A DNA stretch of 24,424 bases from a virus, in the UHGV virus genome UHGV-0281096. One strand, written 5' to 3'. Both the position numbers and the translations under genes were made by a program. Below are positions 16,751 to 24,424 of this stretch, one piece after another; the first letter of the stretch is position 1; each line of letters starts with the position of its first letter. Under the pieces are notes generated by a model that did not search any database, was not told the origin of the DNA, and saw only the letters and a program-made list of their open reading frames with translations.

Positions 16751-18100
16751 ATGGCTACGTGGCAACAGGGTATTAATTCTGGTGGTTTTCTGACTGGAAT
16801 TGGTGCGCAAAATGAGAATGCGCCAAAGGCAAGCGACATTAACGCAACGCTTGGTCTGATTCGCGAAAACAATGAACTGGCTCGATCAGGTGCAAATAAC
16901 GTTGGTCTGACCGCGTTACGTGGTCTGGCTGGAGTTGCTGATATTTACAATCAGGAACAGCAACAGAAAGCTATTAGTGCGTTCAATAAGGTTCACGCTG
17001 ATGCATGGGCTTCTGGTGATCCATCGGGACTATTTAAGTTTGCCCAGGAAAATCCAGCGTTTGTTGCACAGGCACAACAGGCGTTTTCCGGTCTTAATGA
17101 GCAGCAACGCAACGATATGGGCGATTTAGCCATGAGGGCTAACGTCGCTCTTTCTCAGGGACCGGAAGCCTACAGTAAATTCATTACTGACAACAAGGAC
17201 AGGTTAAATCGCGTGGGGGCGAATGCTGATTGGATGATTCAGACAGGTATCCAGAATCCAGAGCAGCTATCACACATGCTGACTACTATGTCTCTCGGTG
17301 CGCTTGGACCAGAAAAGGCGTTTGCTGTTCAGGACAAGATGGTTGGTCGCCAGCAGGAGCAGCAAAGAATTAACGAAACCATTCGCAATAATGACATGAC
17401 GAATGCGAGGGCTATTAGGGGGCAGGATCTTTCCTATAAGGCTCAAATGGCAAGACTGAATCACGACAAGTATGTGTTTAAGCAGTCACAGGCGGCCCTT
17501 GAAAGAGCAGGACAACTTCAGGATATGGATGTTTTGTCTCTTAACTCACAGATAGCAGCGACGGGAATTGATCCTCTAACCGGTAAAGCTGCAACGTCAG
17601 CCAGAATGTCTCAGGCTAAGAGATGGCTTGATGGCAACCATAATTACAACAATGCGTTGATTACTGGTGAGCGAGGGATAGAGAAAATAGATTCTTTGCT
17701 TGGTAAGAAGGAGCTTGAAGGTATCGGTCGCTTCGAAGGAAGAAATATAGATGGCTTCACAAGTGCTGAAGGGCTTGCAAACCGTAATGCGATAGAAGAA
17801 TTAAAGTCGGGTGCGTTTGTCCAGAACGTGCAGATTATGCGAGGTATGGGGAGCCTCTCCAATGCTGAAGGCCAAAAACTGGAAAACCTGATCGCGAAAC
17901 TCGATATAACACAGCCTGAAGAGGTCGTCAGAAAACAGTTATCTGAAATCCGATCGCAATATTCTGTATTTCAAAAGGTTGCAGCAAGGGAGGCTGAATC
18001 AATGGGATATAGTTCATCAGGTTATGACACATATGTTAGTGAGCGAAAATCAGGAAGCGACAGCAATAAGTCCGGTTTCTCGTCTTTATGGGGTGATTAA
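16751..18100 (+). CDS. Ejection protein gp20-like
   Basis: 449 aa; synteny and composition. Confidence 0.75.
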
Positions 18101-20268
18101 TGGCTAAAGCATGGAAAGATGTTATCGCTTCTCCACAGTATCAGGCGTTAACTGAAGAACAGAAAGCACAGGCTCAAGCGCAATATTTTGATGAGGTTGT
18201 TGCCCCTAAGGCTGGTGACAAATGGGCTGAAGCAAGAGATCAGTTTTATGCAGCATACCCTCCGCCTCAGCAGCAGAAAGAAGAACCATCATTGATGCAA
18301 CAAGCTGGTGATTGGCTCACAGGTGGTCAAAGTGCAGGGCAAATTGCAGAACAGGCTGGTCGTGGTCTGGTAAACATACCATTTGACGTATTGCAGGGTG
18401 GCGCAAGTCTGATTAATGCAATCAGCCAGGGGCTTGGCGGCCCCAAGGTTTTGGATGATGTTTATCGCCCTGCCGAGCGACCGACAGACCCTTACGCGCA
18501 AGCCGGTGAAACAATTGGTGGGTATCTCCTGCCAATTGGCACAGCGGCAAAAGCTGCTGGAGCGACAGCAAAGCTCGCTGGAGATATCGGTTCCGCCGGA
18601 AACATGATTGCAGGTTCTCTTGCTGATGCTGCAAATCAGGAGGGCGATTTTGCACAAAATGCTGCCATTAACGGTGGTATCAATATTGGTGCTCAGGGGA
18701 TACTTTCTGGGGCTGGAAGGATCTTAACCTCTAAATCACCTCAAGTTCTTGGTGGCGGGGCAATAAATTCCGCTGCTGATGTTTCGAAAATGGCAAAGTC
18801 TGGTACAGGAAGAGAGATTATTGCCAGACAGTCAGCTAATGTGTCAGACGAAATAGCAAAAGCAGCAGATACTGCTGGAATAGATATCAACGCATTAACT
18901 CCTGGCATGAGATCAGGTAGTCGTGGTCTTGCTCAGGCGGAGGGGATTCTGGCGTCAAAGCCCGGAATTACACAGGATGCACACACCAAAGCATTCAGTG
19001 AAATAGAGTCGAAATTTAACTCAGCATTGGATGAGTTTGGGGCTGAAGCAGGAACTGCATCAGAAAAAAGTGCAGCCATAAAACAAAGGGTTTTGGCAAG
19101 TATTGATAAAATGAAAAATTCAGAAAAGGCCGCATGGGATAGCGTCCGCTCCACGATGCCTGACGCAAAGGCCAGAATGTCAAACCTGAACGCTACAATT
19201 CAGGGTGATATTTTGGCCGGCATGCCGCTAACTCCTGAGATGAAACAATTCGCATCTGCTTATGCTAAAACTAGTAAAAAAGGAATCACGTTTGATGCCA
19301 TGAAGGCATGGCGAAGTAAACTTGCTGACGCAGAGCAGAAGTATATAAGGTCTGGTGAGGCAAATACGGCAAGGCGCATGGCTGAGCTTCGTGATGCAGC
19401 AACGGAAGATATGCGCATAATGGCTCAAAATGGCGGTTTTCTTGATGACTGGCAAAAAGCTAATGATCTGTCAAAAGCAAGATTTACAGCACAAGAACAG
19501 GCTGAAGCAGCGTTTGGTAGAGACCTTGCAACTGATCAGTTGGTAACTAATGGCTCTAAGGCGTTGCAGGGTTCAGCAAAAAGTGGAACAGGTCAGTTCC
19601 ATAAAATAATAAGCGCCCTACCTGAGTCGGAACGCGCGCCAGCAATTGCATCAATATTACAAGATGCGGTATCGCAAGGGGTACGCGGAGGTAAGTCTGA
19701 AGAGGCTGGAATTAAGCATATCGCGACTATTCTTACCCCACAAAACGTGAAGGCAATTAGTCGATATTCTCCAGAGCTTGGTAGGATTGCCAGGGGGTTT
19801 GGAGAACTTGCAAGAGCAGCAACAAAGCCACTTCGATATGTTGAACAAACAGGGCGCTCTATGCCAGCCATTAGCACTCTTGAGAATGGCCTTCATCCAG
19901 TTTTAGAGAGCGTATTGTCTGGCGCTTTTCCAACCGCTGGCGCTATCGCAGGGTTCTCTGGAGGAGGTGTTATTGGAGCAATAGTGGGTGGCGCTGCAGG
20001 TGGAGCAATTGATGCAATAGCAAAAGGATCGATAGCGAAATTATCCGCAACCAGAAGTGGTCGTTACGCTATTGAAAAGGCTGTTCAAGAGGCGACAAAG
20101 GCAGTTAAAGTTGGGGCAAGTGATGGCGCATTAGCGGCGGCGGAACGCAGATTTATGGCAAATAAGGCCGCCGTAAAAGCAATTCGCGATGCACTAGGAA
20201 ACGAAGAGTTCCAGCGTTTGTCGAGGGCTGGGATTGTGGCATCGCTAAGCGGAATGGCACAGGATTGA
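18100..20268 (+). CDS. Ejection protein gp16-like
   Basis: 722 aa; last of three ejection genes; Gly/Ala-rich C-terminal segment ([36 protein letters not shown]). Confidence 0.7.
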
Positions 20269-20285
20269 GGTGACGCCATGGATGG

Positions 20286-20735
20286 CTATTTTTTAAGGTA
20301 ATAATCATCAAAATCGCAAGAAGCGGATATCACAGAACTTGAATCCATAGAAAAAGACAGGGTTTCGCATGCCTTTCCGGCCTGATGATATGCATGGATA
20401 TCACCGGATACATATCCTCCTGTAGAAAACAACGATTTTTCACCGTTTTTTTCTACAAGAATGTGCTTATCTGAATCATTAATAAACCAAATGGAAATAG
20501 AGTGACTTTCGCCAAGGTCTGTTCTATTGAACACCTTAGGTTGGGTACCCTTGACAGCATTTTCGGCTCGCATAATCAGTTCAGCGCTTTTTTTGCTATT
20601 TTTTTGTTCTGTATAGATTTTGTCTGCCACAAAATAAACAATGGCAATGGCTAACAAAGATAGGGAAATCAGCAATGCCTTTTTAATCAATTTTTTGGCA
20701 TCCCTGTAAATCTCAACTGATAATTTTTCACTCAC
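20286..20735 (-). CDS. Membrane-anchored protein of unknown function (candidate superinfection-exclusion-type moron)
   Basis: Minus-strand ORF; likely start GTG at 20735 with AAGGAGG 5 nt upstream (track ATG 20789 has no RBS); single N-terminal TM segment ALLISLSLLAIAIVYFVADKIY; about 110-aa C-terminal domain with two Cys; locally AT-rich. Confidence 0.5.
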   Translation of the reverse strand: MSEKLSVEIYRDAKKLIKKALLISLSLLAIAIVYFVADKIYTEQKNSKKSAELIMRAENAVKGTQPKVFNRTDLGESHSISIWFINDSDKHILVEKNGEKSLFSTGGYVSGDIHAYHQAGKACETLSFSMDSSSVISASCDFDDYYLKK

Positions 20736-20810
20736 ACCAACCTCCTTAGTTTTGAGCAGGATACCAGATGATGTATGGAGAGGCATCATCTACTGGTGAT
20801 AGAACGATGA

Positions 20811-20839
20811 TTGCAGATTGATATTACGATCTGTACACT
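20811..20839 (+). promoter_or_regulatory. Candidate sigma70 promoter for the toxin-antitoxin-like operon
   Basis: TTGCAG - 17 nt - TACACT about 30 nt upstream of ATG 20872; moderate match only. Confidence 0.3.
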
Positions 20840-20871
20840 TCCAGTAGAACCGTGTGTTCTCTGGAGGCGAT

Positions 20872-21525
20872 ATGGACAACATCTACATAGCTAGTTTTGG
20901 TGATATAGACATTCGTTTTGTTAATGTCGACGATGATGTGTTTGTGTCTCAAGGGGATTTTGTCCGTGCAATGGAGTCGTGTCTCACTGATGATATGAAA
21001 CACATAGCTGGTATTTTCATCAGTGGTGGTGTGAGAATTGTTGGCGATTCTAGTGATAGCCGCTCTGCAATACTTGGCGACAGTCTAATTGGGCCAGCTA
21101 TTCATTTTCATGCGGTAGGCAATATTCTTACCTCATTGGTTGAAATGAGTAATGAGGAAAACCCCTCTTTAAGAGAGAGTTGTTATCGCATGAATAGCTT
21201 ATTGCAGTGGTACACGATAGCTTTATCCAAGGCCGATGAGTATTTTGGTCGTGATGTTGTTGACTTGCTATCTTCAGTAAAAAGGCGTCTTGATCGACTT
21301 AACGCTCCATATACCGTAAACGTCCTTCATGATGGGGGTGTTTGGGTTGCAACATGCGATGAGCTTGGATTAGTTACAGAAGCTCCAGATTATGAATCTC
21401 TTACTGAAAGAGTGTGGGATGTCGCTGGAGATATGCTGGTTGAGAATGGTATAGATCAAGACGTAGAAAGCCTGCGCTTTTCCTTCGTTCAGGAGCAGGT
21501 GTCTGATGACAGGATGGCGCTATAA
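20872..21525 (+). CDS. Two-domain protein: N-terminal Bro-N-like domain fused to C-terminal HicB-fold (UPF0150) antitoxin-like domain
   Basis: ATG 20872 with GGAGG upstream; N-terminus IASFGDIDIRFVNVDDDVFVSQGDFVRAM resembles Bro-N pattern; C-terminal YTVNVLHDGGVWVATCDELGLVTEAPDYESLTERVWDVAGDML fits HicB N-domain pattern. Confidence 0.6.
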   Translation: MDNIYIASFGDIDIRFVNVDDDVFVSQGDFVRAMESCLTDDMKHIAGIFISGGVRIVGDSSDSRSAILGDSLIGPAIHFHAVGNILTSLVEMSNEENPSLRESCYRMNSLLQWYTIALSKADEYFGRDVVDLLSSVKRRLDRLNAPYTVNVLHDGGVWVATCDELGLVTEAPDYESLTERVWDVAGDMLVENGIDQDVESLRFSFVQEQVSDDRMAL

Positions 21526-21528
21526 GAA

Positions 21529-21726
21529 ATGGGGCAGGGGCTTTATCCAGAACTGAAAGAGTTATTGTTGTCCTACAACTGTTATTTTGTGCGTCAGGGT
21601 AAAGGTAGCCATGAGATATGGCGAAGCCCTATCACGAAAAAGGCATTTAGCGTTCCATTTACTATAGTTTCAAGGCATACGGCTAACGCAATTCTTCGCC
21701 AGGCAGGAATAAACAAGAAAATTTAA
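21529..21726 (+). CDS. HicA-family toxin (predicted mRNA interferase)
   Basis: 65 aa; ELKELLLSYNCYFVRQGKGSHEIWRSPITKKAFSVP...ANAILRQAGI matches HicA/YcfA-like consensus including conserved GSH; starts 3 nt after upstream stop. Confidence 0.7.
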   Translation: MGQGLYPELKELLLSYNCYFVRQGKGSHEIWRSPITKKAFSVPFTIVSRHTANAILRQAGINKKI

Positions 21727-21750
21727 CCCACCGTCAGGTGGGTTTTTTTA
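21726..21750 (+). terminator. Rho-independent terminator after the HicA-like gene
   Basis: ACCCACC-GTCA-GGTGGGT followed by TTTTTTT. Confidence 0.65.
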
Positions 21751-21781
21751 TCTTCTCTACTTTAAAGATTAAGGAAATACC

Positions 21782-21967
21782 ATGACCATAGAAGAACGTC
21801 TGAACAACATTGAGTTGAATCAAACCCTGCTTGACCAGCGACTTTCAGATCTTGAGCTTAAAGATCTAGATGTGCAAATATCAGAAGCAGAAGCCAAGCT
21901 CTCCAGCTTAAACCACCGCAGGAAGCAAATCCGCGACAGAATTACTCGTGGACGCGGAGGCTGTTAA
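21782..21967 (+). CDS. Small coiled-coil protein, unknown function
   Basis: 61 aa; AAGGA RBS; heptad-like Leu spacing, basic C-terminus ending GRGGC. Confidence 0.4.
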   Translation: MTIEERLNNIELNQTLLDQRLSDLELKDLDVQISEAEAKLSSLNHRRKQIRDRITRGRGGC

Positions 21968-22044
21968 GGTGTGATGGTAATCCTTGCTCACTAAATTTAA
22001 GGATGCGAATCTTTCCGGCCATAGGAGTAATCATGATTTACCCA

Positions 22045-22581
22045 TCAAACAACCCACCAGTTTGCCTGATTGGATACCAGCCTTGCAGTTTTTATGGAAT
22101 TAATTATGCCATGCTCAAGAGCCTTGTTAGCATCCAAAATGGTCGAGTCTGCTATCAGGGATGCCCACCTAATATGGGTTCCGATGTCGATATTGAACGT
22201 CTCAACGAAGCGATCAAGATCGTTATCGAGGCATTTCCCGTACTCTCTCAATCTGGCATGGTCGGCGGCTGGGGAGGCAAAGCACCATAATAGAGGATGT
22301 AACAGGAATCTTGATAATGGGTTTGCGAAACGTTCTGAGCCAGCCAGGAAAACGATATTAGCTATGGATTCAACATTGCTTATGTTGTGAGTTCTAACGG
22401 TAACAGGGAGTGACTTAAGAAAGTTATACGCAGTAAAGCCAGCGGCAGTTTCCCCTCCCTGACTTGATATATGGATATTTAATTCAGTTGCGCCTTGAGA
22501 TAATGCGGTGAGACAGTGGTTCTGAAGTTGCCCAACAGTGGCAGTGTTAACGGGGCATAAGAAATGAATTGTGTGCAGCAT
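22045..22581 (-). CDS. ClpP-fold (S14-like) serine peptidase
   Basis: 178 aa; hand alignment to E. coli ClpP core: IHISSQGGETAAG vs YINSPGGVITAG, ESIANIVFLAG vs ASMGAFLLTAG (Ser), FLLHPL vs MIHQPL (His), ADSTILDANKALEHG vs RDRFLSAPEAVEYG (Asp); TAATG overlap with mnt stop. Confidence 0.7.
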   Translation of the reverse strand: MLHTIHFLCPVNTATVGQLQNHCLTALSQGATELNIHISSQGGETAAGFTAYNFLKSLPVTVRTHNISNVESIANIVFLAGSERFANPLSRFLLHPLLWCFASPAADHARLREYGKCLDNDLDRFVETFNIDIGTHIRWASLIADSTILDANKALEHGIINSIKTARLVSNQANWWVV

Positions 22582-22835
22582 TATTTATCATCCTTGCCAT
22601 AAATCTTTTTAAGTGTCTCAAACACAACGGCCTTGAACTGCTCTGCTTGCTGATCAGCCAAGCGTTCAGCTTCGTCTCGATAGCCTGCACTCGGTGATGG
22701 CTTTGAGAGAGCATCCTGAACGATTTGTAATAACTCAGAGTTCATTGACCTTCCGTTAGCCTCTGCTCTTAATTTCAATTTTTCTCTTACTTCCAAAGGC
22801 ATACGGAAGTTAAAGTGCGGATCGTCTCTAGCCAT
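22581..22835 (-). CDS. mnt: Mnt repressor (Arc/MetJ ribbon-helix-helix)
   Basis: 84 aa MARDDPHFNFRMPLEVREKLKLRAEANGRSMNSELLQIVQDAL... very close to P22 Mnt as recalled. Confidence 0.85.
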   Translation of the reverse strand: MARDDPHFNFRMPLEVREKLKLRAEANGRSMNSELLQIVQDALSKPSPSAGYRDEAERLADQQAEQFKAVVFETLKKIYGKDDK

Positions 22836-22858
22836 GCCATCACTCCAAGTTAGTATCT

Positions 22859-23116
22859 CTAACTTTCGTCTTTATTGTTGCTATACATGCATTTCAACTT
22901 CTCAACATCATGTTCAAGATCTATCAATCGTGATGCTATAGTTGCAAGGTCTAGTGCTTGAATGTGTTTATTTTTTTCGGTCCATGCTTCAAGTGCCGCG
23001 ACCATCTCAGCATTTAATGAACGAGAATTAGCCTCAGCCAGTTCAATAAGACGTTCCTTTATCTCTACAGGAAGCCTCAGATTCACTTGAGGGTTTTTGT
23101 ACTTACGATCAGACAT
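22859..23116 (-). CDS. Arc/Mnt-family RHH protein, paralog 2
   Basis: Start ATG 23116 (M3 of track ORF); PQVNLRLPVEIKERLIELAEANSRSLNAEMV is an RHH motif; divergent helical C-terminal region. Confidence 0.65.
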   Translation of the reverse strand: MSDRKYKNPQVNLRLPVEIKERLIELAEANSRSLNAEMVAALEAWTEKNKHIQALDLATIASRLIDLEHDVEKLKCMYSNNKDES

Positions 23117-23133
23117 CGGCACATCCTGAATAA

Positions 23134-23373
23134 TTATTTACCATACATGGTCTTTAGCGTCTCAAGTAGCGCCTCTTTGAATTTATCAGCTTCTTGGTTA
23201 GCGAATCCTTCAAGTGAGCGAGAGCCATCAAGATTATCAACATGTTTTTGAAGGATAAGCACGATCTCTGAGTTCATTGATCTGCCGTTTTTATCCGCTT
23301 CTTGCTGAATGCGTTTCTTTAAATAGTCTGGAATCCTAATCCCCAATGGACTGATATCTCTTGCACCTTTCAT
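23134..23373 (-). CDS. Chimeric RHH repressor: Arc-like N-terminus with Mnt-like C-terminus
   Basis: Start ATG 23373 with AGGAGG 5 nt upstream; N-terminus MKGARDISPLGIRIPDYLKKRIQQEADKNGRSMNSEIV parallels the arc product; C-terminus GFANQEADKFKEALLETLKTMYGK parallels Mnt C-terminus. Confidence 0.7.
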   Translation of the reverse strand: MKGARDISPLGIRIPDYLKKRIQQEADKNGRSMNSEIVLILQKHVDNLDGSRSLEGFANQEADKFKEALLETLKTMYGK

Positions 23374-23481
23374 TTCTCCTCCTGCACGCTGTGCATAGCT
23401 ACACAGTGTAGGCAAAAAAATTTTGACTTTAAATAAACACGGTGTAGTATTTAGTTATCACGGTGTAGCAAGTGAGGGGAA
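23374..23481. promoter_or_regulatory. Divergent Pant/Pmnt-like promoter-operator region
   Basis: TTGACT (23423-23428) - 16/17 nt - TAGTAT; direct repeats CACGGTGTAG at 23438-23447 and 23459-23468, degenerate copy CACAGTGTAG 23402-23411; imperfect palindrome CTGTGCATAGCTACACAG 23389-23406. Confidence 0.45.
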
Positions 23482-23622
23482 ATGAAAGTTAGAGACATCG
23501 CTCCATTAGGGATTCGTATCCCGCCAGAGATTAAAGAAAAATTGAAGGAAAAGGCTAAGGAGGAGGGCAGGTCTTTAAATTCAGAAATAGTGCAGCGTCT
23601 TATTCGCAGCCTAAAAAGTTGA
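23482..23622 (+). CDS. arc: Arc-like repressor (RHH)
   Basis: Not in ORF track (<60 aa). Hand translation [46 protein letters not shown]; GAGGGGA RBS; same family as P22 Arc, sequence diverged. Confidence 0.7.
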
Positions 23623-23651
23623 AGCCCCAACTGCGGGAACAGTCAGGGCTT
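23621..23651 (-). terminator. Hairpin in arc-ant spacer acting as minus-strand terminator (candidate 3' end of a sar-like antisense RNA)
   Basis: GAAGCCC (23621-23627) / GGGCTTC (23645-23651); on the minus strand followed by AACTTTTTAGG. Confidence 0.35.
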
Positions 23652-23684
23652 CGGTTGTCAGTAAATCCGTGGAGAAAAACCAAC

Positions 23685-24424
23685 ATGAATAGTATAGCAA
23701 TTTTAGAAGCAGTGAACACCTCTTACGTACCATTCAACGGTCAGCAAATTATCACCGCCATTGCTGCCTGAGTTGCATATGTTGCGATGAAGCCAATCGT
23801 TGAAAACCTTGGAATGAGCTGGTCAACGCAGCAAACAAAACTCATGAAGCAGATTAGCAAATTCAACTGTGTTCATATGAACATGGTTGCCGCTGATGGG
23901 AAGCTTCGTAAGCTACTCTGCCTTCCTTTGAAGAAGTTAAATGGATGGCTGTTCAGCATCAACCCTGAGAAAGTTCGTGCTGACATCCGTGATAAACTGA
24001 TTCAGTACCAGGAGGAATGCTTTAGCGTGCTGCATGACTACTGGACTAAAGGCTATGTAGTTAACCCACGCAAATCTAAAAAGGCGTTGCCGGGTAAAAT
24101 CACCACTGAACAGCAGGAAGCCATTAAACAACTCGTCATGAGTCGCGGTCAGTCTCTGCCAAAAGAAAAACAGGCTAAGGCGATGATCACCATGTGGTCG
24201 TCACTGAAATCCCATTTTGGATGTTCGTACAAAGAAATCAGTGAGGAGCAGTTTACAGAAGCACTGTCACTTGCAGCTCGAGTTCCGCTTGAAGGTGAGT
24301 TCATCGGCAAACAAGAGAAGAAAACCAACGAGCTTTCTGCAAAAGAAGCAAACAGCCTTGTATGGTTATGGGATTATGCCAACCGCTCACAGGCATTATT
24401 CCGCGAACTGTATCCGGCGCTAAA
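23685..24424 (+). pseudogene. ant: Antirepressor Ant, interrupted by in-frame TGA at codon 29 (23769-23771); runs off window end
   Basis: ATG 23685 with GGAG upstream; [28 protein letters not shown]-stop; same frame stays open for 217 more codons to window end; translation is P22 Ant-like. Confidence 0.7.

Follow-up and report, generated by a model that had tools for sequence, protein, structure and literature searches.

Does the AT-rich interval that follows the ejection genes of a P22-like prophage encode one integrated system, or a collection of unrelated parts? The question is raised here by UHGV virus genome UHGV-0281096, of which a stretch of 24,424 nucleotides (nt), referred to throughout as the window and covering part of a prophage, was analysed. 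The segment of concern, the island, lies at 20269-23684 and carries a membrane protein gene, a hicBA toxin-antitoxin (TA) pair, a small open reading frame (ORF), a ClpP paralog, three mnt-type repressor genes, arc and sar. The island is a mosaic of modules that have been exchanged independently of one another and are transcribed separately, and not one system, an explanation that we regard, taken as a whole, as very probable. Five units can be told apart: the membrane protein gene, hicBA, the small ORF, a putative leftward operon of the three mnt alleles and the ClpP paralog, and Pant-arc-sar-ant. Its genes mark the window as late-region DNA of a P22-like (Lederbergvirus) prophage, and the interval is an "ant moron", comprising the immI region together with passengers in a recombination-prone slot that extends from the last ejection-protein gene to ant and the tailspike gene. 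The genes whose distribution carries the argument are listed from left to right.

18100..20268, plus strand: gp16-type ejection (DNA transfer) protein, 722 amino acids (aa), the conserved left anchor of the variable region

20286..20735, minus strand: rare bitopic membrane protein, 149 aa when read from GTG 20735, in a frame that stays open as far as ATG 20789

20872..21525, plus strand: Class 7 HicB-type antitoxin, 217 aa, start ATG 20872, with a C-terminal DUF1902/HicB domain (Pfam)

21529..21726, plus strand: HicA toxin, 65 aa, 3 nt downstream of hicB; Pfam HicA_toxin 1.9e-10

21782..21967, plus strand: coiled-coil ORF, 61 aa, function unassigned; phrog_7586 at 1e-43

22045..22581, minus strand: N-terminally truncated ClpP paralog, 178 aa, PpClpP1-like, last gene of a predicted leftward operon

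22581..22835, minus strand: mnt allele A, 84 aa, P22-Mnt type, orphan; Pfam Arc 1e-26, Repressor_Mnt 4e-12

22859..23122, minus strand: mnt allele F, 85-87 aa, orphan; Pfam Arc 3e-10, phrog_795 at 1e-25

23134..23373, minus strand: mnt allele D, 79 aa from ATG 23373, cognate maintenance repressor beside Pant; Pfam Arc 8e-8, phrog_2685 5e-30

Eighty IMG/VR loci (L007-L086) were assembled with the gp16 C-terminus as anchor, and each island protein was scored at each locus. None of the 80 relatives carries the full island gene set. This answers in the negative whether the parts act as one system, a matter that the original prediction had left undecided, and a gene set universal and syntenic among relatives, which it had named as the outcome that would speak against it, is not what is seen. 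The individual parts are distributed unevenly, with the membrane protein at three loci, the hicB-like gene with hicA at a single SEN22-like locus, the ClpP-fold gene at seven, and the 61-aa ORF at about 17, with or without the ClpP-fold gene. Close matches to mnt allele F (>90% identity) are present at about 20 of these loci and to allele D (98% identity) at one. In L007-L009 the membrane protein gene has no hicBA beside it, and SEN22 (L067) has hicBA but neither the membrane gene nor the ClpP gene. The gp16-to-ant interval spans 1.1-4.0 kb across the relatives and 3.4 kb in the window, and at least 80% of the region is found in no phage record (50,697 searched) and in none of 5,426 complete Escherichia coli genomes. 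Modules are also shared with unrelated backbones, ClpP-mnt-arc-ant with lambdoid tail clusters and hicBA with siphovirus tail clusters. It is because the modules assort independently in these co-occurrence data that the island cannot be treated as one system; a single system was rejected over the 80 loci. Two tight pairs, hicB with hicA and mnt with the ClpP paralog, are exceptions to independent assortment.

The slot itself is well known. Villafane et al. 2008 (PMC2629481) gave the name ant moron to what lies between gene 16 and the tailspike gene, and described it as variable in length, without a role in morphogenesis and in rapid flux, with 16 genomes falling into ten types; degraded ant and arc genes are on record from other ant morons (PMC2629481). 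Because the ant moron is defined in the literature (PMC2629481), the reading of this locus as a hotspot is already published. The gene order in P22 is 16-sieA-orf59-mnt-arc-ant-9, and the frame of the window matches it, with the gp16-type gene ending at 20268 (its homologues are annotated as DNA transfer proteins in CUS-3, epsilon34 and records of the Prokaryotic Genome Annotation Pipeline, PGAP) and followed by leftward mnt-type genes, a Pant-like promoter, arc, sar and ant. The immI core of mnt, arc, sar and ant is in the P22 arrangement, as identified by Pfam Arc and Repressor_Mnt, Rfam sar and an Ant alignment, and the immI regulatory set of mnt, Pant, arc and sar is complete in the window. 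The window stops inside ant, and relatives with the same flanks carry a tailspike gene. The right-hand part of the locus comprises the following.

23374..23481, no strand assigned: Pant/Pmnt control region, with two repeats ending CACGGTGTAG, 21 nt apart

23482..23622, plus strand: arc, 46 aa; Pfam Arc 5e-13; aligns with P22 Arc

23617..23684, minus strand: sar antisense RNA; Rfam RF00262, 95.6 bits against a gathering threshold of 43, full length 1-68

23685..24424, plus strand: ant (antirepressor), running off the window, with an in-frame TGA at 23769-23771

The original prediction described an AT-rich block of horizontally acquired genes at a variable hotspot already known from P22-like genomes, and most of this holds. 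The G+C content (GC) is 0.422 at 20269-23684 and 0.495 at 1-20268, the fall of 7 points sits exactly at the end of gene 16, and the minimum among 338 upstream segments of the same size is 0.473. Island genes range over GC 0.375-0.457 and third-position GC (GC3) 0.35-0.45; upstream genes range over GC 0.458-0.547 with GC3 mostly 0.42-0.62, but gp16 has a GC3 of 0.346. Measured against the structural genes, codon adaptation runs from 0.69 to 0.77 in the island and from 0.73 to 0.84 upstream, a modest shift with overlapping ranges, so that neither composition nor codon usage is indistinguishable from the rest of the phage. Orientation flips three times (strand order - + + + - - - - + +) to give four or five transcription units. 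Each unit had been credited with its own ribosome binding site (RBS), promoter or terminator; an RBS is visible ahead of each gene, a terminator follows hicA and a Pant-like promoter is present, but the search for promoters found none for the ClpP-fold gene or the two distal mnt genes. Profile searches recovered all of the listed content, namely the membrane protein, Hic-like pair, coiled-coil ORF, ClpP fold and extra ribbon-helix-helix (RHH) genes. The last of these are of the Arc family; they are not generic cargo and instead form a stack of alternative mnt alleles. Horizontal exchange at a P22-like hotspot is supported by the published ant moron survey (PMC2629481), the patchy distribution over the 80 loci and the modules found in unrelated backbones. 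Three features had been missed: the sar RNA, the in-frame TGA in ant and the fact that the three RHH genes are alleles.

Allele A is 78% identical to P22 Mnt, with a nearly identical DNA-binding half, and is the only one of the three in which the Pfam Repressor_Mnt tail was detected. The ATG of allele D is preceded by AGGAGG, and this allele goes together with the same Arc and the same control region in relatives. Within the control region a Pant-like promoter (TTGACT-16-TAGTAT) lies at 23423-23450, and 19-nt direct repeats lie at 23429-23447 and 23450-23468. Each of the three alleles is, in other phages, a promoter-adjacent mnt with its own operator, and the control regions of those relatives show TAGGTCCACSGTGGACCTA with allele A, two GGTACGCAT motifs with allele F and two CTACACCGTG motifs with allele D; at the level of sequence, each repressor allele is paired with its own putative operator. 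The window holds only a D-type control region, at 23374-23481. Operators of the A type (TAGGTCCACSGTGGACCTA) and the F type are absent across the 24.4-kb window, in which single GGTACGCAT-like 9-mers occur at chance level, outside the region.

The order mnt-D, mnt-F, mnt-A, ClpP gene has successive gaps of 11, 23 and -1 nt, each gene has an RBS, and no leftward terminator was found between the four. From the short gaps and the lack of detected promoters or terminators between the genes we infer one leftward operon driven by Pmnt. A second set of 80 loci was anchored on the ClpP gene, among which 49 hold close homologues (at least 79% identity), and the 87-aa and 79-aa RHH proteins of the window are alleles seen elsewhere directly before the ClpP gene or beside Pant. 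The N-terminal DNA-binding half of the RHH protein that precedes ClpP takes at least six allelic forms, and the C-terminal tail (..ETLKTMYGKDEK) of this ClpP-adjacent mnt is nearly constant, as is the ClpP gene.

If these genes are transcribed as predicted, a lysogen would make a single leftward transcript from Pmnt (23374-23481) carrying mnt-D, mnt-F, mnt-A and the truncated ClpP gene. Mnt-D would repress the resident Pant, and Mnt-F and Mnt-A, if they have no operator elsewhere in the prophage, could act only in trans, where they would shut off the ant genes of superinfecting phages of their two immI types and in this way protect the prophage from antirepressor-driven induction. The orphan copies are most plausibly agents of such trans-immunity against immI types A and F.

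The adjoining arc-sar-ant segment bears on how the stack is to be read. The sar gene occupies the arc-ant spacer, its 5' end abutting the ant start codon, with a terminator hairpin at 23652-23621. The in-frame TGA is codon 29 of ant, after which the frame is open to the end of the window, with the next in-frame ATG at codon 35. Codon 29 is GGN (Gly) in 42/42 relatives, and the closest of them differs at that one base over 216 nt. Ant would be knocked out by this nonsense codon, which reflects either a very recent knockout (a pseudogene) or a sequencing error.

The alternative that survives best holds that the right half of the island is a decaying immunity region, in which the extra mnt genes are neutral scars of recombination where the common mnt 3' tail meets the ClpP gene, ant is dead and nothing is under selection. 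We judge this to be possible but rather unlikely. It draws on the private nonsense codon in ant, on the degraded ant and arc genes of other ant morons, and on the shared tail (..ETLKTMYGKDEK) and conserved RBS-proximal junctions, which give homology for unequal exchange. Stacks are also rare, the numbers of gp16-anchored loci with zero, one, two and three mnt copies being 13, 62, 5 and 0, and the identical D-F-A triple stack is found elsewhere only in L093. Several points tell against the trans-immunity reading itself. Recombination could have left the orphan copies as neutral scars; the prophage extends beyond the window, so that A and F operators may lie elsewhere in it; the operon rests on spacing and a lack of detected promoters and terminators, from a simple scan that missed Pmnt itself; and the distal copies differ from their nearest cognate alleles by just two synonymous and two nonsynonymous changes in one case and one and three in the other, making the stacks very recent. 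With so few substitutions the ratio of nonsynonymous to synonymous changes (pN/pS) is uninformative, and selection on the orphan copies cannot be assessed. Against decay, all 11 of 11 distal mnt copies are full-length, intact ORFs, each with its own RBS; the orphan alleles are the two commonest specificities among the 62 single-mnt loci (28 of type A and 13 of type F); the F-to-A order recurs in five separate loci, CUS-3 included; and the window shows no damage to mnt, arc, sar or Pant. Trans-immunity is thus retained as the preferred reading of the orphan mnt genes.

Two further observations concern the repressors. An N-terminal strand motif, RDI(S/A)PLGIRIP, is common to the allele D Mnt and Arc. 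Unlike their P22 counterparts, the two proteins may recognise one and the same half-site. The mnt genes of RefSeq epsilon34 and UPF_BP1 are labelled "partition protein ATPase", a name also attached to phrog_795 and phrog_2685.

The last gene of the predicted operon encodes a recognisable member of the ClpP fold (Pfam CLP_protease, 44.4 bits against a cut-off of 20.2), one that falls far short of the cut-off of every NCBIfam ClpP equivalog model. The catalytic Ser72 and His95 are invariant in the family and align with Ser97 and His122 of E. coli ClpP; the position equivalent to Asp171 is Ser in the window protein and differs among family members. The sequence of the window protein starts ~25 residues later than that of ClpP, without the N-terminal axial loops that dock ClpX and ClpA. 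It thus has neither the full Ser-His-Asp triad nor the axial loop of a canonical ClpP, a pattern that fits PpClpP1. The best match in the PDB is 9UXT (E 3e-56, 40% identity end to end), which is PpClpP1 of Pseudomonas plecoglossicida (PMC12900304), a wide-pore (42.7 A) homotetradecamer with weak peptidase activity that requires Ser and His and can dispense with the third residue. PpClpP1 does not bind ClpX and co-assembles with canonical ClpP into a more active heterotetradecamer; it is treated as a chromosomal second ClpP, and phage are not mentioned (PMC12900304). By analogy, the window protein would form wide-pore tetradecamers unable to dock ClpX alone, and would co-assemble with host ClpP and change the output of ClpXP. 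Tempering this proposal, the function is extrapolated from a Pseudomonas protein that is just 40% identical.

The ClpP start overlaps the stop of the upstream mnt by 1 nt (TAATG). A Mnt-type gene with this 1-nt overlap precedes ClpP in 44 of the 49 close-homologue loci, which is every one with an identifiable upstream ORF; at the remaining five, either the match to ClpP is truncated or an upstream ORF call is lacking, and one of them (L127) has an allele-F match just before ClpP. The gene is present in 128 of the 5,426 complete E. coli genomes (2.4%) and is at least 99% identical in 127 of the 128. A ClpP-mnt-arc-ant block, 95-98% identical, lies between lambdoid tail genes L and K, which makes the immI module a mobile moron in its own right, one that passes from one phage morphotype to another. 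Cassette loci are seen in PhiR12_1 (L003, 4023-6035) and E. coli MS 196-1 (L005, 4023-6303), with two mnt copies in MS 196-1.

Farther afield, solo copies of the ClpP gene on the opposite strand are found in the lysis-terminase interval or in Mu/P2-like tail clusters (Klebsiella, Pantoea, Erwinia, Proteus), and members on the Pseudomonas side are found in siphovirus tail clusters, one of them beside a superinfection-immunity gene, with another on an integrase-bearing element. Every ClpP-family context inspected, the closest to PpClpP1 being those of homologues ~48% identical to it, is a prophage or integrative element. The taxonomic breadth of the paralog rests mainly on the protein search, and a genome-wide scan gave six species genomes. 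A search of the literature for prophage ClpP morons returned nothing specific. In a Stutzerimonas-type prophage (L179; 5419-6558 and 3063-5285) a 45%-identical ClpP paralog stands behind a helix-turn-helix (XRE) repressor and the pair is divergent from two P22_AR_N antirepressor genes, a layout like that of mnt-ClpP and arc-ant with a non-homologous repressor.

These contexts bear on whether the ClpP paralog takes a working part in antirepressor control, for instance by degrading Ant or incoming phage proteins as a post-translational arm of immI, and is not a mere passenger. The constant 1-nt coupling to a mnt-type gene, the transfer of ClpP along with arc-ant into lambdoid tail clusters, and the Stutzerimonas-type arrangement with its unrelated repressor all speak for such a role. 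Most of the distant homologues (44-58% identity, and 69-74% in L130, L131 and L133) speak against it: they are solo genes whose surroundings (the lysis-terminase interval, a Mu/P2-like tail cluster or an integrative element) include neither a repressor nor an antirepressor. Morons moreover commonly gain expression in a lysogen from a place in a repressor operon, rexAB behind lambda cI being the established case. Given the many solo copies, it is likelier that the ClpP paralog is a passenger using a lysogen-active promoter, and a part in antirepressor control is doubtful.

Two other identities for this stretch were rejected. Assignment as a head-maturation protease fails on the NCBIfam model Clp_rel_HeadMat (49.3 bits against a cut-off of 120) and on position, the gene lying outside the morphogenetic operon, on the opposite strand and co-oriented with mnt. 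A 95-aa ORF at 22003-22290 (plus strand) matches phrog_7758 at 1.6e-61, but is antisense inside a ClpP-fold gene with genuine Pfam and PDB homology; phrog_7758 was probably built from wrong-strand gene calls. The truncated ClpP paralog of phiv205-1 (L001, 3805-4341) is labelled "head maturation protease", an annotation carry-over.

The abrupt fall in GC at the end of gene 16 is what would be expected if the island were a single recent horizontal acquisition from an AT-rich donor. The ant moron is nonetheless AT-richer than the 7 kb upstream in 41/41 relatives with a measurable interval (mean 0.414 vs 0.492, or 7.8 points), regardless of cargo; P22 shows the same low-GC interval; and the AT-richness of the passengers is matched by that of the conserved immI genes mnt and arc. 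The low GC belongs to the locus as such, for which the values in the window are typical. It therefore does not date the cargo, and AT-richness was rejected as a marker of recent acquisition. The nearest relatives also differ from segment to segment, with the ClpP gene 98-100% identical to its matches, hicB 72% identical to that of SEN22 and the membrane gene 100% identical in one E. coli, which points to several separate exchange events. The whole 3.4-kb block was not found as a contiguous unit in the phage records, the E. coli genomes or the fetched IMG/VR loci. A single acquisition is accordingly very unlikely.

The hicBA genes form a compact cassette. HicA scores 41.2 bits against the Pfam HicA_toxin cut-off of 27 and has the GKGSH motif conserved in the family, and an AlphaFold2 model of HicB (mean predicted local distance difference test, pLDDT, 82) has two domains joined by helices. 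The HicB falls within the size range of 216-233 aa, has two domains, and is encoded upstream of and tightly linked to hicA, and by these sequence features the genes are a Class 7 toxin-antitoxin pair. In 8/8 distant loci a HicB-like gene is followed directly by hicA, with identities down to 47% and 70%, and these eight are morons in siphovirus tail clusters of Serratia and Yersinia. At megablast sensitivity hicBA was not found in the 5,426 complete E. coli genomes. Its role would be in addiction or abortive infection. Class 7 hicBA was reported to be without a recognisable DNA-binding domain (Gerdes 2024, PMC10865869). The N-terminal domain of the HicB appears KilA-N/APSES-like, which is a lead and not a result; such a domain would be the likely autoregulatory DNA-binding part, and may provide the DNA binding that Class 7 was said to lack. 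No KilA-N or Bro-N Pfam signal was obtained in this domain from 16 family members, even at E 5, and a search for literature on HicB combined with KilA-N returned nothing specific. Immediately after hicA is a strong terminator.

21725-21744, no strand assigned: hairpin terminator AACCCACCGTCAGGTGGGTT followed by a T-run

The sequence CCCACCGTCAGGTGGG of the hicA terminator also abuts the ClpP cassette in phiv205-1 and lambdoid prophages (L001, L003, L005), which suggests that the shared hairpin serves as a recombination boundary sequence. In a close relative from E. coli EPSSH018 (L004, 2474-3341) the hicBA slot holds a Panacea-domain protein and a partner ORF that probably make up a further toxin-antitoxin pair, an exchange, at that position, of one cargo for another of like function. 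For the 61-aa coiled-coil ORF an XhlA identity was rejected, the Pfam match (E 0.02) being far under the cut-off and the name being applied by PGAP solely to a longer 92-aa relative.

That all parts of the island cooperate in a single multi-gene defence against phages is extremely improbable: the parts do cluster within 3.4 kb and have defence-like flavours (a TA pair, a protease and a membrane protein), and relatives hold other TA-type cargo in the slot, such as the Panacea-domain protein, but the components assort independently, are nowhere all present among the 80 relatives, lie in separate transcription units of opposing orientation, and include a ClpP-mnt block that moves alone into lambdoid tails. 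A search against PADLOC-DB 2.0 gave no meaningful defence match, the only one being a chance-level similarity of the 61-aa ORF to PbeC (E 0.001).

The first gene of the island, in the sieA slot, most likely starts at GTG 20735, with GGAGG ahead, and the resulting 149 aa fit its homologues, which amount to only five clusters among 5.8 billion proteins. At megablast level the gene is present in about five of the 5,426 E. coli genomes; tblastn against the phage records gave no match, and a viral fold library returned a single unnamed structural neighbour. The protein has one hydrophobic segment and two invariant Cys, and its model (pLDDT 76) consists of one transmembrane (TM) helix, a long helix and then an 8-stranded beta-barrel. 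The comparison class for such a predicted barrel is the PliC/MliC periplasmic lysozyme inhibitors, with conserved lysozyme-binding loops. An identity as SieA was rejected, there being no BLASTP alignment to P22 SieA, a single TM segment and no FxRYPxEAxxFNK motif; this comparison was made directly with P22 SieA, and types B and C were not compared directly. The product may be a lysogen-expressed envelope factor in the sieA slot, with superinfection exclusion, a guess from position, as the leading guess for its role; its fold matches are generic, at 7-11% identity. Upstream of the gene is a control region shared with hicB.

20736..20871, no strand assigned: divergent control region of the membrane-protein gene and hicB, its function inferred

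A promoter-like site at 20695-20724 (plus strand) overlaps its left edge, and an 8-nt inverted repeat (TCTACTGG/CCAGTAGA) lies at 20789-20796 and 20841-20848.

The type of locus is already known and the present gene combination is new. Confirming the moron hotspot is of use mainly for annotation; the passengers that could repay study are the orphan Mnt stack, the mnt-coupled ClpP and the N-domain of the Class 7 HicB, whose functions are proposed only. It is conceivable, though we think it improbable, that immI cassettes carry two unrecognised layers of protection, orphan Mnt arrays that silence foreign ant genes and an mnt-coupled truncated ClpP that re-tunes ClpXP. Were this so, promoter-less orphan Mnt genes of foreign specificities would block hostile induction of the resident prophage, the ClpP subunit would re-tune ClpXP via host ClpP, possibly against Ant or incoming phage proteins, and PpClpP1 would be one of a family carried essentially as cargo by prophages and other mobile elements. 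The orphan mnt stack offers a simple testable model, in which a prophage widens its immunity against antirepressor-mediated induction by heterologous phages. The mnt-coupled truncated ClpP ties PpClpP1 to prophage cargo and suggests that phages tune host ClpXP.

Several known systems provide a frame for these elements. Relative to the ant moron of P22, the window is alike in its position after gene 16, its core of mnt, Pant, arc, sar and ant, its low GC and its variable content; it differs in lacking sieA, orf59 and an hkc gene, and in having the novel membrane protein, the Class 7 hicBA, the 61-aa ORF, three mnt alleles, the truncated ClpP gene and the interrupted ant. The ant moron of CUS-3, with two annotated mnt genes, has the same F-then-A mnt stack on the leftward strand. 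The window adds the promoter-proximal allele D with its own Pant/arc region, and the ClpP paralog after allele A, in place of which CUS-3 has three other ORFs. The membrane protein resembles P22 SieA (PMC10883804) in its slot right after gene 16, strand, size (149-167 vs 162-164 aa) and membrane location; unlike SieA, with which it shares no sequence similarity, it has one TM segment and not three or four, lacks FxRYPxEAxxFNK, and carries a beta-barrel domain that is predicted to be periplasmic.

Among the passengers, the hicBA pair agrees with Class 7 (PMC10865869) in having hicB upstream of hicA, in products of 217 and 65 aa, which are exactly the exemplar sizes, and in a HicB whose two domains are split by a helix, the C-terminal one being DUF1902. 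The ClpP paralog and PpClpP1 are 40% identical and similar in length (178 vs 183 aa), both lack the axial-loop region, and both conserve Ser and His with a third triad position that is not Asp, whereas the window gene is prophage-borne and translationally coupled to mnt, and has Ser where PpClpP1 has Pro at the third position. The working analogy for its expression is rexAB of lambda, likewise an accessory gene downstream of a lysogen-expressed repressor and so made in the prophage; in the window the repressor is a secondary one, of immI, the passenger is a protease subunit, and the two are coupled by a 1-nt overlap.

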